DNA of 64,000 bases from an uncultured Clostridia bacterium. Lineage in GTDB: Bacteria; Bacillota; Clostridia; Saccharofermentanales; DTU023. The position numbers were made by a program, and so were the translations under genes. Below, piece by piece: positions 3,351-11,549 of this stretch. Each line of letters begins with the position of its first letter. Position 1 is the stretch's first letter. The notes beneath the pieces were generated by a model. It did no database searches, had not been told where the DNA came from, and saw nothing but the letters and a program-made list of their open reading frames with translations. The stretch is from the NCBI GenBank assembly GCA_946220865.1, contig CAMJYM010000003.1, positions 28,428 through 92,427 of the forward strand, given 5' to 3'.

Positions 3351-4415
3351 TTATCTCATTTTTCTGCGGAGCAGGAACAAGGCGGAAGCGCTGAGAAGGA
3401 AGAAAAGGCTCAGAGGCTGAGTACTCTTCTCACCTGTCTTAGGCAGCTGAATCGGAGCCTGAGCAGCATCGACATTTTGCACCGGAGCCTGCGGCATCGG
3501 CTGCACTTGCTGAATCACCTGCGGCGGATTCCACATCGGCGGCACCTGGCAGGGATAAGGGCAGGGAATGAGAATATCCTGTTCTTCTTCTGGTGTAGGC
3601 GCAGGTTTCACAGTGACGGTGTAAGAAATAGTCTTATTATCATCAGCTGGGAGATTATAATCCTTGCCTTTAGGATCTTGCTCTGATTCCCAACTAAATT
3701 CAAAATCCATTGACATGCCCATAAAAGTAGCTGTTGCTTTGAAATGCCCTTTAACTATACCAGTTGCTTGTAATTCTTTACCTGCAAATTTGGCATCAGC
3801 CACAATATTTCCAGCATCTAATCTCAAAGTTGGGCAAGCATTAACATTCTCCCATAAGGTCTTAAAATTATCATATTGAGATTCATTATTTAATTTCATT
3901 TCAACGTGAAGGTCTTTTTTGGGATCTTTATCATAATTCGTGGCAGCGGCATAAAAAAGAGAGTTATCATAAAATTTTGCATTGTCGTAAGAATCGGTTT
4001 TAAATTCCAGACCATCCGGGAGATACAGAAAGGTCTCAAAAGTGCACTCCAAATCTGATATTTCAATCAGACTTAAATATTTTTCACCATCTGCATAACC
4101 CTCTTCTTTAGCAGCTTGCACAAACCAATCTTTTAGTCCATTAATCTGATTCTTAACAGGTTGTACGCCTATTATCCCTGTTAAAGTAAAGGGTACACCA
4201 GGCTCCACAATATGAGGAGCTGTGCCCGAATCTTCACCAATAAGGAGATCTCCCGGCACTGGAGTAATTATATTCTCCGATTTGAAAAGAGGCTGGGGGG
4301 GGGGGGTAGAGGTATCTTCGCTTGCACAAACCGGCAGTGAAAGCGTTGTCAATGCGAATACTGCGACGAGGCAGATGGCAAAGAAGCGATGTTTTTTCCT
4401 TTGTTGTAACTTCAT
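3351..4415 (-). CDS. LPXTG cell-wall-anchored surface protein, function unknown
   Basis: Has an N-terminal signal peptide (MKLQQRKKHRFFAICLVAVFALTTLSLPVCA). The C-terminus has an LPKTG motif, a hydrophobic segment and an RRKMR tail. A Pro/Gln-rich stalk precedes the anchor. The central domain DNA is markedly AT-rich. Confidence 0.85.
   Translation of the reverse strand: MKLQQRKKHRFFAICLVAVFALTTLSLPVCASEDTSTPPPQPLFKSENIITPVPGDLLIGEDSGTAPHIVEPGVPFTLTGIIGVQPVKNQINGLKDWFVQAAKEEGYADGEKYLSLIEISDLECTFETFLYLPDGLEFKTDSYDNAKFYDNSLFYAAATNYDKDPKKDLHVEMKLNNESQYDNFKTLWENVNACPTLRLDAGNIVADAKFAGKELQATGIVKGHFKATATFMGMSMDFEFSWESEQDPKGKDYNLPADDNKTISYTVTVKPAPTPEEEQDILIPCPYPCQVPPMWNPPQVIQQVQPMPQAPVQNVDAAQAPIQLPKTGEKSTQPLSLFFLLSASALFLLRRKMR
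4295..4306. repeat. G12 (coding-strand C12) homopolymer inside the LPXTG CDS
   Basis: Counted directly: 12 consecutive G at 4295-4306. They encode T-P-P-P-Q just after the predicted signal-peptide cleavage site. Confidence 0.95.
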
Positions 4416-4570: not shown

Positions 4571-5473
4571 TCAGCGACCATGTGCTTCAAGCAAGCTGAA
4601 GAGCCTTGCTGCGAGGAGGCCGAGGCCAAAGAAGAGCAGGCAGAGGAGGACGGCTGCAAGAGGACTGAGACCCATGGCTTCGAGCTTGGTGGGCTGGAGT
4701 CCGGGAAAAACGACGGCGGGGAAAATACCGATGGAGGAGCCGATGACAAGCCCAAGAATAAGGGCATAAAGGCTGCTGTAATGGCGATTGAGCAGTCGGT
4801 TGATAGCTTTGGCAAGGAGCAGGATGCTGGCCGCCGCACCCAAAACAAGCGGCAGCACCGCCGGGATGTTGAGATTTTTTATGGCATCACTCATGGGTTT
4901 ATAGAGGCCAAAGTAGATGAGAAAGTTAGAGGGCGAGAGTCCCGGCACGATAAAGCCCATGCCGATGATCGCTCCGGCCATAAGCCAGACAGGGAAACTG
5001 GGATTGATCTGCGTGAATTTCTGGCCGCCCAGCAGCATGAGGGCGATGATCAGCGCGGTAGAGCAGAGCATGAGAGGAAGGTCGCTTTTTCTTCTTCCCT
5101 CTTTGCCGGCTTCTTTGAAGAGCGAAGGCAGGGTTCCGACGACCAGCCCGATAAAGAGGCAGGTAAAGAAAGCTTCGTAAGAGCCGAGGGCCGCTGATAC
5201 GACAAAGGCGAAGAGCAGAATGCCCGTGCCTCCGCCCAGAATGGCCGGAAGAAAATAGAGCAGATTTCGGCCGAAGTGAAAAAAAGGCCGGGCCAGAAAG
5301 CGCATGATGGGATCATAGAGCTTGAAGATAACGGCCAGGACGCCCCCGGAAAGACCCGGAAGAATGGCGCCGATACCGATGAGCAGCCCTTTGAAATACC
5401 AGAGGATGCGATCTTTCCAGCTTTGTTCCGGTGGAATATAGCCCTTCTCGGCTTGCGATGTGCCAGGTTCCAT
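4571..5473 (-). CDS. DUF368-family polytopic membrane protein (family recently linked to undecaprenyl-phosphate recycling)
   Basis: 300 aa with many TM segments and a duplicated PGLSGG / PGLSPS motif typical of DUF368. Assigned by pattern recognition only. Confidence 0.65.
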   Translation of the reverse strand: MEPGTSQAEKGYIPPEQSWKDRILWYFKGLLIGIGAILPGLSGGVLAVIFKLYDPIMRFLARPFFHFGRNLLYFLPAILGGGTGILLFAFVVSAALGSYEAFFTCLFIGLVVGTLPSLFKEAGKEGRRKSDLPLMLCSTALIIALMLLGGQKFTQINPSFPVWLMAGAIIGMGFIVPGLSPSNFLIYFGLYKPMSDAIKNLNIPAVLPLVLGAAASILLLAKAINRLLNRHYSSLYALILGLVIGSSIGIFPAVVFPGLQPTKLEAMGLSPLAAVLLCLLFFGLGLLAARLFSLLEAHGR

Positions 5474-5577
5474 GATGCTCCCTTCTTTTTCGAGAAGCTT
5501 CGCTCCTTATGCAGCAAGGCTGATATCCTGCTAAAATATTAAAGTTCAGAAATGTATTTTACTATGAGGAGAGTCGC

Positions 5578-7251
5578 GTGAACATATTCAGGGAGAAAAT
5601 CAGAGAAGTCGTGGCCTCGGTGTTTCCGGTTGCAGGCTTCGTGCTTATCCTGCAGCTGCTCTTTCGACCGATGAGCGGCCTGGAGACGGGGCGTTTTATC
5701 TTCGCCAGCCTGCTGATTATCGGCGGCCTTGCGCTTTTTCTCCTGGGCATCGATCTGAGCATCACCCCCATGGGCAATTCCATGGGCCGCGGTCTGGTCA
5801 AAAGCCGCAATATACCGATTATTCTGTTCGCCGCTTTTATTCTCGGCTTTCTCATCAACGCGGCCGAGCCGGATTTGCTGATCCTCGCTCAGAGTATTGA
5901 CGCGGTCAGCGGTGGCCAGCTCCCCTATCTGCAACTCATCATCACCGTTTCGCTCGGGGTTGGCCTCATCGTCATGGTCGGCTTTGTGCGCCTGCTGCGC
6001 AGCTTGCCGCTGAAATATCTCTTTGCTGTGATTTACGGCCTTATTTTGATTCTTGCCCTGCTCGGTCCGGGCGAATATCTGGCCATCGCTTTCGATGCCT
6101 CCGGGGCAACGACAGGCGCCATTACAACGCCCTTTCTGCTCGCCCTTTCAGCCGGTCTGGCCGTGCTCTCGCACCGCTCGTCCGAGGCGGGTGTCGGAGA
6201 AAGTTTCGGCATGGTGGGACTTGCTTCCAGCGGGGCCATTCTGGCTGTCCTGCTCCTCGGCTTAATTCGAGGCGGCGGCGCTCTCCAGGGAGGGTCCATC
6301 GAACTCAGTCAAGCTGGCGAGAGATTCTTCGATCCTTTTGTACAAATCATCCGTCCCCATGTCAAGGATGCTCTACTGGCCATCTTGCCTCTTACCCTGA
6401 TCTTCCTCTTCATCAATAAACTCACACGTGACATGAAACGCCGCCAGTTGCGGAGGGTTTATAAAGGCCTGATCTATTGCATCCTCGGCCTCAGCATTTT
6501 CACAGTGGCGGTCAACGGGAGCTTCATGGAGGCCGGGCAGCGGGTAGGACAGACCATGGCCAGTCTGGACAAACCTTACCTGCTTGTGCTCATCGGCTTC
6601 TTTCTGGGCATGACCGTAGTTCTGGCTGAACCGGCGGTCCATGTACTCACTCAGCAGATCGAAAAGGAAACCGGCGGCTTTATTCCCCGAAAACTCGTTC
6701 TTATCTTTCTGAGCGGAGGCGTGGCTATCGGCGTTTCCCTGGCCATGCTGCGCCTGATTCTGCCAGGCCTGCAGCTCTGGCACCTGCTGCTTCCCGCCTA
6801 TGTGGCAGCACTCATCATGAGCTGGTTCTCCGACGAGCTTTTTGTCGGCATCGCCTTTGACTCCGGCGGTGTAGTCTCCGGACCCATGACTGCAACTTTC
6901 GTCCTTGCCTTTACCCAGGGTGCCGCTTCCGTAAGCCCTGGAGCCAATGTGATTCTCGATGGTTTTGGCGTCATCGCCCTCGTCGCCATGACGCCACTGC
7001 TTTCATTGCAAATTCTCGGTCTCATCTATCAGCAGCGCTCAGCCAGGTCGAGACGGATGGCAGCAGCTGAGCATCAGGCGCTCGAAGCGGCTAACGAGAA
7101 AAAGGATCGTTCCACGCTCAGCGAGTCTCAGACAACGACGCCGGGTGAAATTGAAACTCCCGATCAAACCGCTGTGAAGCAGCCTGGCAAGACCACGACT
7201 CAGTATGAAACCGTACCCCAGCAGGAAGAAGAGAAAGGAAATCCCTCATGA
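5578..7251 (+). CDS. Fused double DUF1538 integral membrane protein with a hydrophilic C-terminal tail
   Basis: GTG start with a GAGGAG Shine-Dalgarno. Internal duplication is visible: AAEPDLLILAQSI vs LAEPAVHVLTQQI, and AFDASGATTGAITTPFLLA vs AFDSGGVVSGPMTATFVLA. Its stop overlaps the start of the next gene (ATGA). Confidence 0.7.
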   Translation: MNIFREKIREVVASVFPVAGFVLILQLLFRPMSGLETGRFIFASLLIIGGLALFLLGIDLSITPMGNSMGRGLVKSRNIPIILFAAFILGFLINAAEPDLLILAQSIDAVSGGQLPYLQLIITVSLGVGLIVMVGFVRLLRSLPLKYLFAVIYGLILILALLGPGEYLAIAFDASGATTGAITTPFLLALSAGLAVLSHRSSEAGVGESFGMVGLASSGAILAVLLLGLIRGGGALQGGSIELSQAGERFFDPFVQIIRPHVKDALLAILPLTLIFLFINKLTRDMKRRQLRRVYKGLIYCILGLSIFTVAVNGSFMEAGQRVGQTMASLDKPYLLVLIGFFLGMTVVLAEPAVHVLTQQIEKETGGFIPRKLVLIFLSGGVAIGVSLAMLRLILPGLQLWHLLLPAYVAALIMSWFSDELFVGIAFDSGGVVSGPMTATFVLAFTQGAASVSPGANVILDGFGVIALVAMTPLLSLQILGLIYQQRSARSRRMAAAEHQALEAANEKKDRSTLSESQTTTPGEIETPDQTAVKQPGKTTTQYETVPQQEEEKGNPS

Positions 7252-7949
7252 ATGCAGAACAACACACTTCCCCTCTTAATGAATGGGCTCCCGATGAAGC
7301 GCTGGAACTGTTGGTCTTTATTGTGAATCATGGCCGTGGAGAGGCCATTTTACAGCATTTGCGCGAGCATTTTGACACCGGTGCAACACTCATGCCGGCT
7401 TATGGCACAAGGCCAAATAAAGTCCTGAGATTTCTCGCACTGGACGAAGTGCGGAAGGATGTGCTCCTGCTGATTTGTCCTGAGGCACGCAGCACAGAGA
7501 TGATTCGGTCGGTGAAACAGGTCTTTCATCTGGAAAAAGCGAACAGCGGCATCGGTTTTACCATCCCGCTCAGTGAGGCACTGGGGCTGCACCAGCAAAA
7601 GGAGCGCTCGGCAAAGCTCAGTATCCCTGACGACAAGATCCACTATGTCGCTCTTTGCACGATCCTTGAGCGGGGGCTGGGCGAAGAAGCGGTTGACGTC
7701 GCCCGGGAGGTCGGCGCCAGGGGAGCTACCGTGATTGAAGCCCGGGGCAGTGCGCAGCGAATCAGTCAGGATTTTGCTTTTGAAATCGAAGATCAGAAGG
7801 ATTTTCTTCTGATGATCCTCAGAAAAGAGCAGCTGGAAACCGTACAAAAGGCCCTTTCCAACCATTTCAGCATGTCAGAAGCCAACAGTGGCATCACTTT
7901 TTCTTACCCTCTCAACAAAGTCATCGGCCTTTACGGACAGGAGGACTGA
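7248..7949 (+). CDS. Tandem (two-domain) PII/GlnB-like signalling protein
   Basis: 233 aa with two homologous halves, ending EKANSGIGFTIPLSEALGL and SEANSGITFSYPLNKVIGL. Shows a ferredoxin-like beta-alpha-beta pattern. Translationally coupled to the DUF1538 gene. Confidence 0.6.
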   Translation: MNAEQHTSPLNEWAPDEALELLVFIVNHGRGEAILQHLREHFDTGATLMPAYGTRPNKVLRFLALDEVRKDVLLLICPEARSTEMIRSVKQVFHLEKANSGIGFTIPLSEALGLHQQKERSAKLSIPDDKIHYVALCTILERGLGEEAVDVAREVGARGATVIEARGSAQRISQDFAFEIEDQKDFLLMILRKEQLETVQKALSNHFSMSEANSGITFSYPLNKVIGLYGQED

Positions 7950-7989
7950 AAAGCTTCCGAGCAGCTGCTTTTAAAAAAGGAGGACGACA

Positions 7990-8295
7990 ATGTATCAGGC
8001 CATTCATCTTATTATTCAACCCCACGACCTCGACAGGGCTCTGGCCATCGCTCATGCTGCAGGCGCTAACGGCGCCAGCATTATTCCGGCACGTGGAGCC
8101 GGGCGACATCAGGCGGGCAAAATTCTCTCCGTCCCTGTAGACGAACGCATGCTCTTTGTTCTCATTATTGTCCCCGAAGAACGTGTGGAGGCCATCGTGC
8201 ACAATCTTCATGAGGAACTGAAGATTGATGAGCCGGGACAGGGCGTTATTATGGTGAGCCCTCTCTGTTCGGTCAGTGGACTTGTTGAGTCCTGA
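7990..8295 (+). CDS. Single-domain PII/GlnB-like protein
   Basis: 101 aa with AGGAGG upstream. The pattern IIQPHDLDRALAIAHAAGANGASIIPARGAG...LFVLIIVPEERVEAIVHNLHEEL resembles the PII fold. Confidence 0.6.
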   Translation: MYQAIHLIIQPHDLDRALAIAHAAGANGASIIPARGAGRHQAGKILSVPVDERMLFVLIIVPEERVEAIVHNLHEELKIDEPGQGVIMVSPLCSVSGLVES

Positions 8296-8376
8296 GGCAG
8301 GTCAGAGTTTTCATTCAGTCCTGAGGCCGTACTTGTTCAAACTGAAAAGCTTTCGACTTCAGTCCTGAGGCCGGAT

Positions 8377-8405
8377 TTGCACAGGACAGAAAAAAGTTTT
8401 AGAAT
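8377..8405 (+). promoter_or_regulatory. Sigma-A-type promoter for the FMN riboswitch and ribU (TTGCAC-17 nt-TAGAAT)
   Basis: The hexamers were read at 8377-8382 and 8400-8405. The riboswitch P1 region begins a few nt downstream. Confidence 0.6.
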
Positions 8406-8579
8406 AGGACTGTTTTCGGGGCAGGGTGAAATTCCCTACCGGCGGTGAAGCCTCAGGGCTAAGTCCGCGAACCTCCGCAAGGAGGCCGAGAGGGTGCAAT
8501 TCCCTCACCGACGGTACAGTCCGGATGAAAGAAAACAAAACAGCTAAGCTGTGTCGTGCCCCGTTCGGGGCTTTTTTTA
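8404..8579 (+). promoter_or_regulatory. FMN riboswitch (RFN element) with expression-platform terminator
   Basis: Conserved RFN blocks are present: TTCGGGGCAGGGTGAAATTCCCTACCGGCGGT, AGTCCGCGA, GGTGCAATTCC and CCGACGGTACAGTCCGGATGAAAGAAAAC. A GCCCCG-TTC-GGGGC hairpin plus T7 follows at 8558-8578. Confidence 0.93.
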
Positions 8580-8605
8580 TGCCCAGAGAAAGGAGATCTG
8601 TTTCC

Positions 8606-9283
8606 ATGTTGAACAAAAGTAACGAGCAAGTCATTTGCGAGAGTAAAAACGTGAGCCAGGAAGGTTTTACGGCTGAAGACAGTTCGGTCATGCAGAGTCA
8701 TCAGCTGCACGTTAAATGGATCGCCAAAGTGGCTTTGCTCTCAGCCATTGCCTATGTCCTCATGATGCTGGAATTCCCTCTGCCGCTGATGCCGGATTTT
8801 CTCAAGTTTGACTTCAGTGAAATCGCTTCGCTGCTCGCCGCCTTCAGCATGGGGCCTCTGGCCGGCGTGATGGTCTGCCTGCTGAAAAACCTGCTGCATC
8901 TCCCTTTCAGCAATACCATGATGATTGGCGAGCTGGCCAATTTTCTGATAGGCGCTGCCTTTGTGGGCACGGCCGGTCTCATTTACAGCCGACATAAGAC
9001 AAAAAAAGCGGCCATGCTGAGTATGGCCGCCGGAACCGTTGCCATGACGCTTGTGGGTTCTCTCTTTAATTTATGGATCAACATTCCCTTTTACGTTCAG
9101 GTGATGGGCTTTCCCCTCGAGGCCATCATTGGCCTCTCCCAGGCAGCTGGTAATACCCTTGTTCACGATATGAGCAGCCTGATTCTCTGGGTCTTTGTCC
9201 CGTTTAACCTTTTTAAGGGCGGCCTCATTTCTGTCCTGGTCAGTCTGATGTACAAAAAAGTCAGCCCGCTGCTGCACAGCTGA
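8606..9283 (+). CDS. ribU: Riboflavin transporter RibU (ECF S-component)
   Basis: 225 aa from ATG 8606, with an AAAGGAG Shine-Dalgarno. The ORF-track start at 8426 reads through the riboswitch. Polytopic membrane protein directly behind an FMN riboswitch. Confidence 0.85.
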   Translation: MLNKSNEQVICESKNVSQEGFTAEDSSVMQSHQLHVKWIAKVALLSAIAYVLMMLEFPLPLMPDFLKFDFSEIASLLAAFSMGPLAGVMVCLLKNLLHLPFSNTMMIGELANFLIGAAFVGTAGLIYSRHKTKKAAMLSMAAGTVAMTLVGSLFNLWINIPFYVQVMGFPLEAIIGLSQAAGNTLVHDMSSLILWVFVPFNLFKGGLISVLVSLMYKKVSPLLHS

Positions 9284-9429: not shown

Positions 9430-11004
9430 TCAGGCTCCTAATTGCCGGATCACCCGAGCTGCATAAAGGGCTAAATCCGCTGAACGGACACTGGCACTGC
9501 CCTTCTTGGCCGCAGCCTGAACCGCAGCTTTACCATGGACATAAGCGCCCAGAACAGCCGCCATGGCCAGGCTCATCCCACGGGCGGCAAAACCTGAGAT
9601 AAGCCCTGTTAAGACGTCACCACTTCCTGCTCGGGAGAGCGCCGCAGAGGCAATGGGCAGAACAAAAGCCCGTCCATCCGGCAGGGCTATCACGGTACAG
9701 GCCCCTTTCAGCAGCACGATGGCCGCGAAGCGTGCGGCCATTTCCCGGGCTGTTTCCACGCGATCGTGCTTCATCCGGGGAAGCAGATCCGGGCAGAGAC
9801 GAGCGGCTTCTCCAGGATGTGGTGTCAGAAGGACGGAGCCTTCTCCAAGTCGTTCAGCCCTCTTTCTCAGAAGGCCCGCAGCATCAGGGCAGGCGGCGAG
9901 CACATTAATGGCGTCGGCATCGAGCACCAGAGGCTTGTCCCCCTCGATAAGCTCAAGGAGCTTCGTCATGCGGGATCGCCTCTGTCCCCAGGCCGGGCCA
10001 GCAGCCATCACTGTGGCTGCAGCGGCCGCATCCTTTCCGGTGATCGTTTCCGGGAAATCGCAGATGATCGAAGGCTCAAGCTCTTTATCCGTACTCAGGT
10101 AGAGATAGCCTGGTCCCGTCACGAGGGCTGCTTCCAGACAGAGGCGCAGGCCTCCGGGCATCTCAGGGCAACCCGCGAAAAGGGCAAGCCTTCCCCGCTC
10201 TCCTTTATGGCCAAAATTGTTTTCCTGAGGCAGGAGCGCTTTCGCCATAGCTAAATTGATGAGGCGCAGGTGATTTTCACTTAGAGCGAGCGCTTCTTCC
10301 GTCAGAGGCAGGCCGATCGGCAGGACTTCAACGCGACCGGCAAAGGCAGCTCCCGGCATATTGCAGAGGCCCGTTTTCGTCAGCACAAAAGAGAGAGTCA
10401 GATCGGCTTTGACGACGGCAGGATCCACACCACCGCTCGTTGCCTCCACCCCGGCAGGGAGATCCAGGGAGATCACGCGGCTCCCCTGCTTCTGCCACGC
10501 TCTGAGCTGGACGGAGGCCTGAGCCATCGCAGCATTTAAGGGTCGTTCGAGGGTAAAACCCGTGCCAAGCATCCCTTCAATGATGAAATCAGGACGTTCC
10601 AGCTCGTTCCAGAAGTCAGCAGATTCTTCAGCGGGAAAAATGGGCAGGCCCATACGGGCCGCCGCCGACCGCATCGTTTCAGCTTCTTCGCCCAGAGACT
10701 TCTGCGGGCAGAAGTCAATCACGGTGATTTGCGAGCTGAGACTTAAAAGCTGCCGGGCAAGCGCCCAGGCGTCTCCTCCGTTCATGCCGGGTCCTGCAAG
10801 CAGGAGAATCTTCGATTCAGGGTGAAGAACCTGCAAGCGTAAAAAATGAAAAGCGGCTGCCGCTGCCTGTTCCATGAGGAGCAGGAGGGGCAGGCCGCTT
10901 TTTTCGACCCAGTAATGATCAAGCGCGCGTTGTTCCTGACGACCCAGGGCACGCTCTCCAAGCTGGAAAATATCTTCCGGAAAAATGGTTTCTGTGGACG
11001 TCAT
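9430..11004 (-). CDS. nnr: Bifunctional NAD(P)H-hydrate epimerase / ADP-dependent dehydratase
   Basis: 524 aa. YjeF N-terminal motif LAGPGMNGGDAW and C-terminal kinase-fold motif GSGDVLTGLISGFAARG. Confidence 0.88.
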   Translation of the reverse strand: MTSTETIFPEDIFQLGERALGRQEQRALDHYWVEKSGLPLLLLMEQAAAAAFHFLRLQVLHPESKILLLAGPGMNGGDAWALARQLLSLSSQITVIDFCPQKSLGEEAETMRSAAARMGLPIFPAEESADFWNELERPDFIIEGMLGTGFTLERPLNAAMAQASVQLRAWQKQGSRVISLDLPAGVEATSGGVDPAVVKADLTLSFVLTKTGLCNMPGAAFAGRVEVLPIGLPLTEEALALSENHLRLINLAMAKALLPQENNFGHKGERGRLALFAGCPEMPGGLRLCLEAALVTGPGYLYLSTDKELEPSIICDFPETITGKDAAAAATVMAAGPAWGQRRSRMTKLLELIEGDKPLVLDADAINVLAACPDAAGLLRKRAERLGEGSVLLTPHPGEAARLCPDLLPRMKHDRVETAREMAARFAAIVLLKGACTVIALPDGRAFVLPIASAALSRAGSGDVLTGLISGFAARGMSLAMAAVLGAYVHGKAAVQAAAKKGSASVRSADLALYAARVIRQLGA

Positions 11005-11028: not shown

Positions 11029-11352
11029 TCAGGCTTCCAGCACCTGCTTGAGAGCTGCTTCGAGTTCCTCATAGGGACGAGCTCCCACCAGTTTATTCAC
11101 GACCTCTCCGCCTTTGAAAATGTAGAGCGTGGGAATGCTCATCACACGAAACTTTTCCGCGAGACCGGACTGTTCATCAACATTGATTTTGCCAACATCC
11201 ACCTGTCCCTCAAAGGTCTCAGAAAGTTTATCCACAACCGGGGAAACCATGCGGCAGGGACCGCACCAGCTTGCCCAGAAATCAACCAGAACGGGCTTCT
11301 CATTTTTTTCCACGAATTCGCTAAAGTTTTTTTCAGTAATTTCAGTCGTCAT
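11029..11352 (-). CDS. trxA: Thioredoxin
   Basis: 107 aa from ATG 11352, with a GGAGGG Shine-Dalgarno. WCGPC active site in VDFWASWCGPCRM. Confidence 0.92.
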   Translation of the reverse strand: MTTEITEKNFSEFVEKNEKPVLVDFWASWCGPCRMVSPVVDKLSETFEGQVDVGKINVDEQSGLAEKFRVMSIPTLYIFKGGEVVNKLVGARPYEELEAALKQVLEA

Positions 11353-11549
11353 TTTTCCCTCCACGTGATGCATCAGCCGGACCTGGCGTCTCAGATAAGA
11401 GAGGCGGTTCCTAAGTCCGTGACTGTATGGACTTTTGTCCAAGTCTTTTGCTGCGCTTATTATAGATGCCAAAGCTTGAAAACACAGTAACAATAGATAC
11501 CTGTCCTTTAGCCCTGAAGAGCAAAGTGAATGTAAGGTTAAAGAAGAAA

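Follow-up and report, generated by a model that had tools for sequence, protein, structure and literature searches.

A DUF1538 membrane protein encoded together with a tandem and a single PII-like protein in an uncultured Clostridia bacterium

We analyzed a three-gene locus of an uncultured Clostridia bacterium (Saccharofermentanales; DTU023), which codes for a fused double-DUF1538 membrane protein, a tandem PII-like protein and a single PII-like protein. The locus lies in a stretch of 64,000 nucleotides (nt), the whole of which is called the window in the following (assembly GCA_946220865.1, contig CAMJYM010000003.1, positions 28,428–92,427, forward strand). The neighborhoods of related genes, predicted structures and conserved residues were used to assess whether the PII-like proteins belong to the membrane protein and how their domains may be arranged.

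Sequence and survey basis

For the locus survey, 80 species-representative genomes with a fused DUF1538 gene were scanned by hidden Markov models (HMMs) built from the tandem PII family; 79 of the 80 loci were complete. Locus architectures are written with D for the fused DUF1538x2 protein, p for one PII-like domain and a space for a gene boundary. The domain limits of the tandem protein were set by custom HMMs, and residues of the PII-like domains were numbered after alignment to Synechocystis PII (1ul3). Trees of the membrane proteins and of the domains were computed by neighbor-joining (NJ) without support values and are indicative only.

Organization of the locus

The following features were found, with protein lengths in amino acids (aa):

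5566–5571, plus strand: Shine-Dalgarno-like GAGGAG, 6 nt upstream of the GTG start of the DUF1538 gene (read from the sequence)
5578–7251, plus strand: fused double-DUF1538 membrane protein, 557 aa, GTG start, Pfam PF07556 matched twice
5578–6267, plus strand: DUF1538 half A, about residues 1–230
6331–7047, plus strand: DUF1538 half B, about residues 252–490
7048–7248, plus strand: hydrophilic C-terminal tail of the membrane protein, residues 491–557 (from the AlphaFold2 (AF2) model and composition)
7248–7251, plus strand: ATGA start/stop overlap of the DUF1538 gene and the tandem PII-like gene (read from the sequence)
7248–7949, plus strand: tandem PII-like protein, 233 aa, with an internal repeat and a Pfam P-II match in its C domain
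7296–7604, plus strand: N domain of the tandem, about residues 17–119 (custom HMMs)
7629–7940, plus strand: C domain of the tandem, about residues 128–231 (custom HMMs)
7979–7983, plus strand: GGAGG ribosome-binding site of the single PII-like gene, 6 nt before its start (read from the sequence)
7990–8295, plus strand: single PII-like protein, 101 aa (S domain), with a Pfam P-II match

The three open reading frames (ORFs) and the ATGA overlap had been described in an initial annotation of this DNA, and all of them were found as given there, on the plus strand. A database protein (P0003) of the same length and 99% identity supports the 557-aa gene call. By the ATGA overlap, the DUF1538 gene and the tandem PII-like gene are translationally coupled, and overlapping or abutting junctions between DUF1538 and PII genes recur in most related loci. 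The genes for the 233-aa and the 101-aa protein are separated by 40 nt, with the GGAGG inside this gap. A flavin mononucleotide (FMN) riboswitch (RF00050, 115 bits) at 8408–8540 on the plus strand opens the next, unrelated unit, and therefore the cassette consists of three genes. Scans for promoters and terminators gave no consensus promoter upstream of 5578 and no terminator between 8295 and the riboswitch.

The DUF1538 membrane protein

Pfam DUF1538 (PF07556) matches the 557-aa protein in two stretches (E 3e-119; 396 bits versus a cutoff of 22.6), and the two halves are 28% identical to each other (E 2e-18), which bears out the internal duplication noticed initially. By the NCBIfam models, half A is related to UmpA (NF041627; 141.4 bits, 2.7e-41; equivalog cutoff 490 not reached) and half B to UmpB (NF041628; 135.0 bits, 2.9e-39; equivalog cutoff 500 not reached). 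By these scores, the protein is a member of the DUF1538 family, but no UmpAB equivalog. Fused homologues of about 500 aa gave 7,546 matches at E≤1e-10 in a word-indexed search, the top 120 all having lengths of 472–613 aa, and they occur in Bacillota, Synergistota, Actinomycetota, Chloroflexota and Pseudomonadota.

The AF2 model of the 557-aa protein is all-helical, with a predicted local distance difference test (pLDDT) value of 85.8 and a predicted template modelling score (pTM) of 0.84. Foldseek found no PDB fold matching this model (best E 0.034, template modelling (TM) score ≤0.17), and a sequence search found no PDB match to the protein either. In 92 homologues, E97/P98 and D173 of half A and E351/P352 and D428 of half B are invariant; these Glu and Asp residues in both halves would fit the binding of ions (cations or protons).

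UmpAB of Halomonas zhaodongensis is the sole assayed DUF1538 member, and the family is without a solved structure. E. coli KNabc was rescued only when both ump genes were present, not by either gene on its own, and the pair conferred Na+(Li+,K+)/H+ antiport that depended on pH; UmpA and UmpB co-immunoprecipitated and were reported as a heterodimer (PMC5484666). The earlier statement that the substrate of DUF1538 proteins is not established is therefore outdated for the family. As the antiport was seen without co-expressed PII, a protein which the paper does not mention (PMC5484666), PII would act as a regulator rather than as a component of the machinery for transport. A 2026 paper lists DUF1538 among the ion-transport features that predict growth pH.

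The hydrophilic tail, which had been pointed out as a peculiarity of the membrane protein, is present: residues 496–557 are rich in E, T, Q, K and P, the last helix extends to residue 516 in the AF2 model, and residues 520–557 have pLDDT values below 50 and are predicted to be disordered. At the same position, relatives of the 'pp Dp' clade carry a linker of about 27 aa followed by a fused PII-like (S) domain. Speculatively, the disordered tail may be a tether, a docking arm or a relic.

The PII-like domains

The halves of the 233-aa protein are 31% identical (E 3e-13), and both align to the 101-aa protein (5e-9 and 1e-6). Pfam P-II (PF00543; cutoff 25) is matched by the C domain with 40.2 bits (E 4.7e-10) and by the 101-aa protein with 39.5 bits (E 7.3e-10), the best PDB sequence match of the latter being the PII entry 7o4x (1.4e-5). 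Hence, the reading of the 101-aa protein as a single PII-like protein holds. For the 233-aa protein, the repeat and the C domain stand as proposed, while the N domain alone gave no Pfam match; the N domain is recognized as PII-like only via the internal repeat and via AF2 and Foldseek results of a homologue.

This homologue is the triple-fusion protein P0126, which is collinear with the window proteins and provides the fold evidence for them. Each of its domains matches GlnK/PII chains, for example GlnK1 (2j9e) and PII (4ush), with a Foldseek probability of 1.0 and target TM-scores of 0.65–0.74. The models thus support PII-fold domains in both the 233-aa and the 101-aa protein. Exhaustive HMMER searches with the tandem profile gave 740 clusters at E≤1e-10, nearly all of them tandems of 210–245 aa.

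For the interpretation of single positions, we presumed the residue roles (ATP/2-oxoglutarate site, T-loop modification sites) that are familiar for PII proteins. G27-x-T29, G35 and the B-loop glycines are kept in N, C and S domains. A lysine equivalent to K58 is found in 84% of the N, 97% of the C and 63% of the S domains, the S domain of the window having Met. Ile or Val takes the place of Lys90 in N, C and S domains alike, Arg38/Gln39 are not conserved, and D88 is changed to His or Asn. The T-loop, counted between the equivalents of G37 and K58, has 15–16 residues versus 21 in canonical PII proteins; Tyr51 and Ser49 are absent from it, with Leu or Phe at position 51. Since all three types differ from canonical PII at Lys90 and Arg38/Gln39, sensing is expected to be non-canonical, and both canonical ATP/2-oxoglutarate sensing and uridylylation appear unlikely from the residue pattern.

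Association of PII-like proteins with DUF1538 across the family

In 78 of the 79 complete loci, a PII-like gene adjoins the fused DUF1538 gene. The 80 loci of the survey have the following architectures:

D pp: 60 loci
pp Dp (tandem upstream, single PII-like domain on the C-terminus of the membrane protein): 10 loci
D pp D p (Mobiluncus): 2 loci
ppDp (L068, five domains in one ORF): 1 locus
D ppp: 1 locus
p D pp: 1 locus
p(-) D pp (single PII on the opposite strand): 1 locus
D pp pp: 1 locus
D p p: 1 locus
D p (interrupted by the contig end): 1 locus
D without PII: 1 locus

The only complete D locus without a PII-like ORF within 6 kb is that of Clostridium sp. FAM 1755, a complete genome (L015, 5962–7500). 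At L014 (7484–9004), two tandem PII genes stand in succession. Where the DUF1538 units are encoded as split pairs, as in Alphaproteobacteria and metagenomes, mostly one single PII gene follows and occasionally two singles or a tandem. The latter layouts are seen at L100 (137–2267), L103 (20–2306), L112, L136 and L141, and they look like intermediates between one- and two-domain forms. No gene family is enriched in the flanks (at most 5 of 142), including amtB, glnA or other nitrogen genes; therefore, the DUF1538-PII cassette is self-contained.

DUF1538x2 and a C-terminal tandem are joined in one chain in P0260 (720 aa), P0272 (709 aa) and the fragment P0251, and Pfam independently supports such DUF1538-PII fusions. 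At L068 (5227–7749), from a metagenome-assembled genome (MAG) of Candidatus Stramentimicrobium fermentans, an ORF of 840 aa comprises tandem PII, DUF1538x2 and single PII, in frame by eye; this five-domain ORF is known from one MAG, and an assembly error is possible. The natural fusions speak for a physical association of the partners and for a cytoplasmic location of both ends of the membrane protein. Adjacency and fusions together uphold the proposal that the PII-like proteins belong with the membrane protein, and the DUF1538-PII cassette is a family-wide module. No prior description of DUF1538 together with PII, of tandem or fused PII, or of a pseudo-trimer was found in the literature searched.

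Three-domain systems

The exact layout of D, pp and p in three genes was found in the window and one relative (L001/L002) only. In L001, the proteins are 65% (DUF1538), 56% (tandem) and 62% (single) identical to those of the window, and the flanks are syntenic; the trio is thus conserved in another genome, as had been asked of it at the outset. Triple fusions are also present in this lineage, and about ten triple-PII chains of 304–357 aa were found in the HMMER search with the tandem profile. In P0126 (346 aa), residues 12–228 are collinear with the window tandem (E 1e-45) and residues 247–343 with the window single protein (E 6e-13, 29% identity), and the gene directly follows a DUF1538 gene of 512 aa. 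P0198 and L052 are further triple fusions of this kind.

AF2 modelling of P0126 with a 110-sequence alignment gave a pLDDT of 87.5 and a pTM of 0.89, with three beta-alpha-beta-beta-alpha-beta units and low confidence confined to the linkers. Such a pTM shows a rigid three-domain body, which may be a ring or a stack alike. Among the whole-chain Foldseek matches of P0126, only those to single-domain PII proteins were meaningful; multi-domain matches, with root-mean-square deviations of 17–20 Å, were rejected.

In the NJ tree of the membrane proteins, three-domain systems fall into clades of their own: 'pp Dp' forms one clade, while the window, L001 and L052 share another, which stands beside Mobiluncus. 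The domain tree unites the N domains in one clade and groups the S domain of the window with those of P0126 and P0127. The P0126 contig (L086) also carries a PII-like cyclic di-AMP receptor protein (PF06153) and a YitT/DUF2179 membrane protein (533–886 and 8232–9206) within a few kb. Both are systems with PII-like domains, and their vicinity is probably coincidental.

Possible arrangements of the PII-like domains

We favor the explanation that the locus codes for an ion transporter of the DUF1538/UmpAB type together with its own regulatory subunits, whose three PII-like domains act as one assembly, and give it a probability of roughly 0.5 as a whole. The 557-aa protein would most likely be a secondary ion transporter, a monovalent-cation/proton exchanger, with the N and C domains of the 233-aa chain and the S domain of the 101-aa chain as its cytoplasmic regulatory subunits. 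These would act in a ratio of 1:1:1 with one transporter chain. A hetero-pseudo-trimeric N-C-S ring could dock on the cytoplasmic face of the transporter and gate transport upon binding of a small-molecule ligand in the clefts between the domains, while the tail of the transporter, sited where relatives carry the fused S domain, might serve as tether or docking arm. For the clade of the window, this proposed ring is our preferred geometry at slightly less than even odds. The fully specified picture, in which a three-position PII ring of three different domains is fitted to one asymmetric DUF1538 transporter and senses a non-canonical ligand, is more tentative again.

Several observations weigh against this explanation. 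The substrate of the window protein is extrapolated from UmpAB, and its scores lie far below the UmpA and UmpB cutoffs. The survey did yield three-domain forms in some lineages, in line with the 2+1 arrangement suggested by the initial annotation, but three PII domains are not the family rule: 60 of the 80 loci (~75%) have the tandem only, and split pairs mostly have one single. In 51 of the 60 D pp loci, with at least 600 base pairs on both sides, a third PII-like ORF was absent within about 6 kb even at E<1. A two-domain partner is hence sufficient at these loci, where a trimer cannot be completed. In two Mobiluncus MAGs (L036, 497–4606; L053, 5974–10083), DUF1538x2 is followed by the tandem and a second DUF1538x2 by the single PII, which suggests that the tandem and single types may each serve a transporter of their own. 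Furthermore, contact signals of a homo-oligomer could be met inside a chain of paralogous repeats in the models, and the fusion linkers of about 25–30 aa are compatible with other arrangements and do not discriminate between quaternary models.

A simple coincidence, by which the PII-like genes would be ordinary GlnB/GlnK nitrogen regulators beside an unrelated gene, has next to no probability. It could draw on the RefSeq name 'P-II family nitrogen regulator' and on the Pfam P-II matches, but the near-universal adjacency speaks against it, the several independent fusions with DUF1538 effectively refute it, the canonical ligand and modification residues are missing, the T-loop is shortened, and nitrogen genes are not enriched nearby. 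More serious, though still unlikely, is an arrangement in independent homotrimers: on a trimeric DUF1538x2 protein, the tandem chains would give coaxial N3 and C3 rings and the single proteins a separate S3 ring, so that two kinds of regulator would act on one transporter of the window, in analogy to AmtB3-GlnK3 or SbtA3-SbtB3. Chains would then be equimolar in every architecture (A B p, AB pp, AB pp p, AB ppp, Dpp and ppDp, with A and B for the DUF1538 halves), which fits the translational coupling. The tandem-only majority and the Mobiluncus layout, with tandem and single each after its own DUF1538x2, would be explained, a stacked rod would likewise give a high pTM, and linkers of the observed length permit stacking. 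Against such stacks, UmpAB was reported as a heterodimer without sign of a trimer (PMC5484666). At L068, C and S are tethered to one membrane unit, which makes three coaxial rings awkward, and the heritable three-domain clades together with the repeated fusion of S and tandem suggest that the domains cooperate.

A further alternative takes the number of domains from the membrane protein. The N and C domains would pack as a two-domain unit, each contacting one DUF1538 half, and S would be an accessory or second sensor of few lineages. Ferredoxin-like folds often form pseudo-dimers after duplication, split DUF1538 goes mostly with a single PII and fused DUF1538 with a tandem, and tandem-only loci would simply be the norm. 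The correlation of split and fused forms may however be purely phylogenetic (Proteobacteria versus Bacillota), the G27-x-T29 motif and the B-loop glycines, which line the inter-subunit clefts of PII trimers, are kept in all three domain types, and the triple fusions model as one rigid body. We consider this pairing improbable, and more so than the stacked homotrimers. The assembly of N, C and S on one transporter chain remains our favored explanation for the window.

Comparison with known transporters and PII proteins

Transporter systems that have a PII partner of their own are already known, for example AmtB-GlnK and SbtA-SbtB. Like the cassette of the window, these have a PII-fold gene beside the transporter gene, a presumed docking on the cytoplasmic side and, in principle, a dedicated metabolic gate. 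They differ in that single-domain chains form homotrimers on homotrimeric transporters, whereas the PII-like domains of the window are duplicated and, in relatives, triplicated. The window transporter consists of one chain with an internal duplication, whose fold is different and has no PDB match; its partners have T-loops that are shorter by 5–6 residues, and key ligand residues differ. New are DUF1538 as a partner family, PII-like domains in covalent duplicates or triplicates, and three-domain forms that are specific to certain lineages.

With UmpAB, the window protein shares PF07556 and the paired homologous units, its N-terminal half corresponding to UmpA and its C-terminal half to UmpB. 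UmpA and UmpB are separate chains, whereas the units of the window protein are fused, and the UmpAB paper mentions no PII partner (PMC5484666), in contrast to the PII-like genes of the window cassette. Canonical GlnB/GlnK proteins (PF00543) have in common with the window domains the fold, G27-x-T29, G35, the B-loop glycines and, for N and C, the K58 lysine; they are distinguished by Lys90, Arg38/Gln39, Tyr51/Ser49 and the 21-residue T-loop. A precedent for two adjacent PII paralogues forming one hetero-oligomeric regulator is NifI1/NifI2 of methanogens (PDB 9p1x; bioRxiv 10.1101/2025.09.09.675011), which, unlike the window proteins, are nitrogenase regulators of single-domain chains binding 2-oxoglutarate and ATP. 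Their similarity to the window proteins is marginal (E 0.14–0.15), and 9p1x, a nitrogenase-NifI complex with a weak match, was dismissed as an informative relative.

Genes flanking the cassette

Three direct repeats lie at 8271–8298, 8300–8327 and 8344–8371, each with CAGTCCTGAGGC at its end; the first one runs across the stop codon of the gene for the 101-aa protein. Downstream of the FMN riboswitch, a terminator-like hairpin (8558–8571) precedes an ORF up to 9283 for the S component of an energy-coupling factor transporter (PF12822), which is probably RibU-like. The mechanically listed ORF of 285 aa starts at 8426 and overlaps the riboswitch, and for this reason the true start is probably an ATG near 8607.

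Divergent from the DUF1538 gene, a VCA0040-like/PopT-like polyprenyl-phosphate transporter (PF04018, 2e-33) is encoded at 4571–5473 on the minus strand. The synteny of this gene, of YjeF (9430–11004) and of thioredoxin (11029–11493) is kept in L001. A 354-aa protein encoded at 3351–4415 on the minus strand has an N-terminal signal-like segment and, at its C-terminus, LPKTG, a hydrophobic stretch and RRKMR. These motifs mark it as a surface protein anchored by sortase and suggest that the host is Gram-positive.

Significance

Essentially every DUF1538 system has its own PII-like partner, which has one, two or three domains and is in some cases covalently fused. For the PII family, this adds tandem PII-like proteins whose ligand sites are altered, in no fewer than 740 clusters, and a natural experiment in broken three-fold symmetry. 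The natural fusions P0126, P0260 and the L068 ORF are concrete constructs for structural work. Should the N-C-S ring be true, it would be the first described PII-type regulator without three-fold symmetry, and the tandem-only majority would then be a further structural puzzle. For transport biology, the cassette suggests that anaerobic Gram-positive bacteria may control their ion or pH homeostasis through a metabolite gate.

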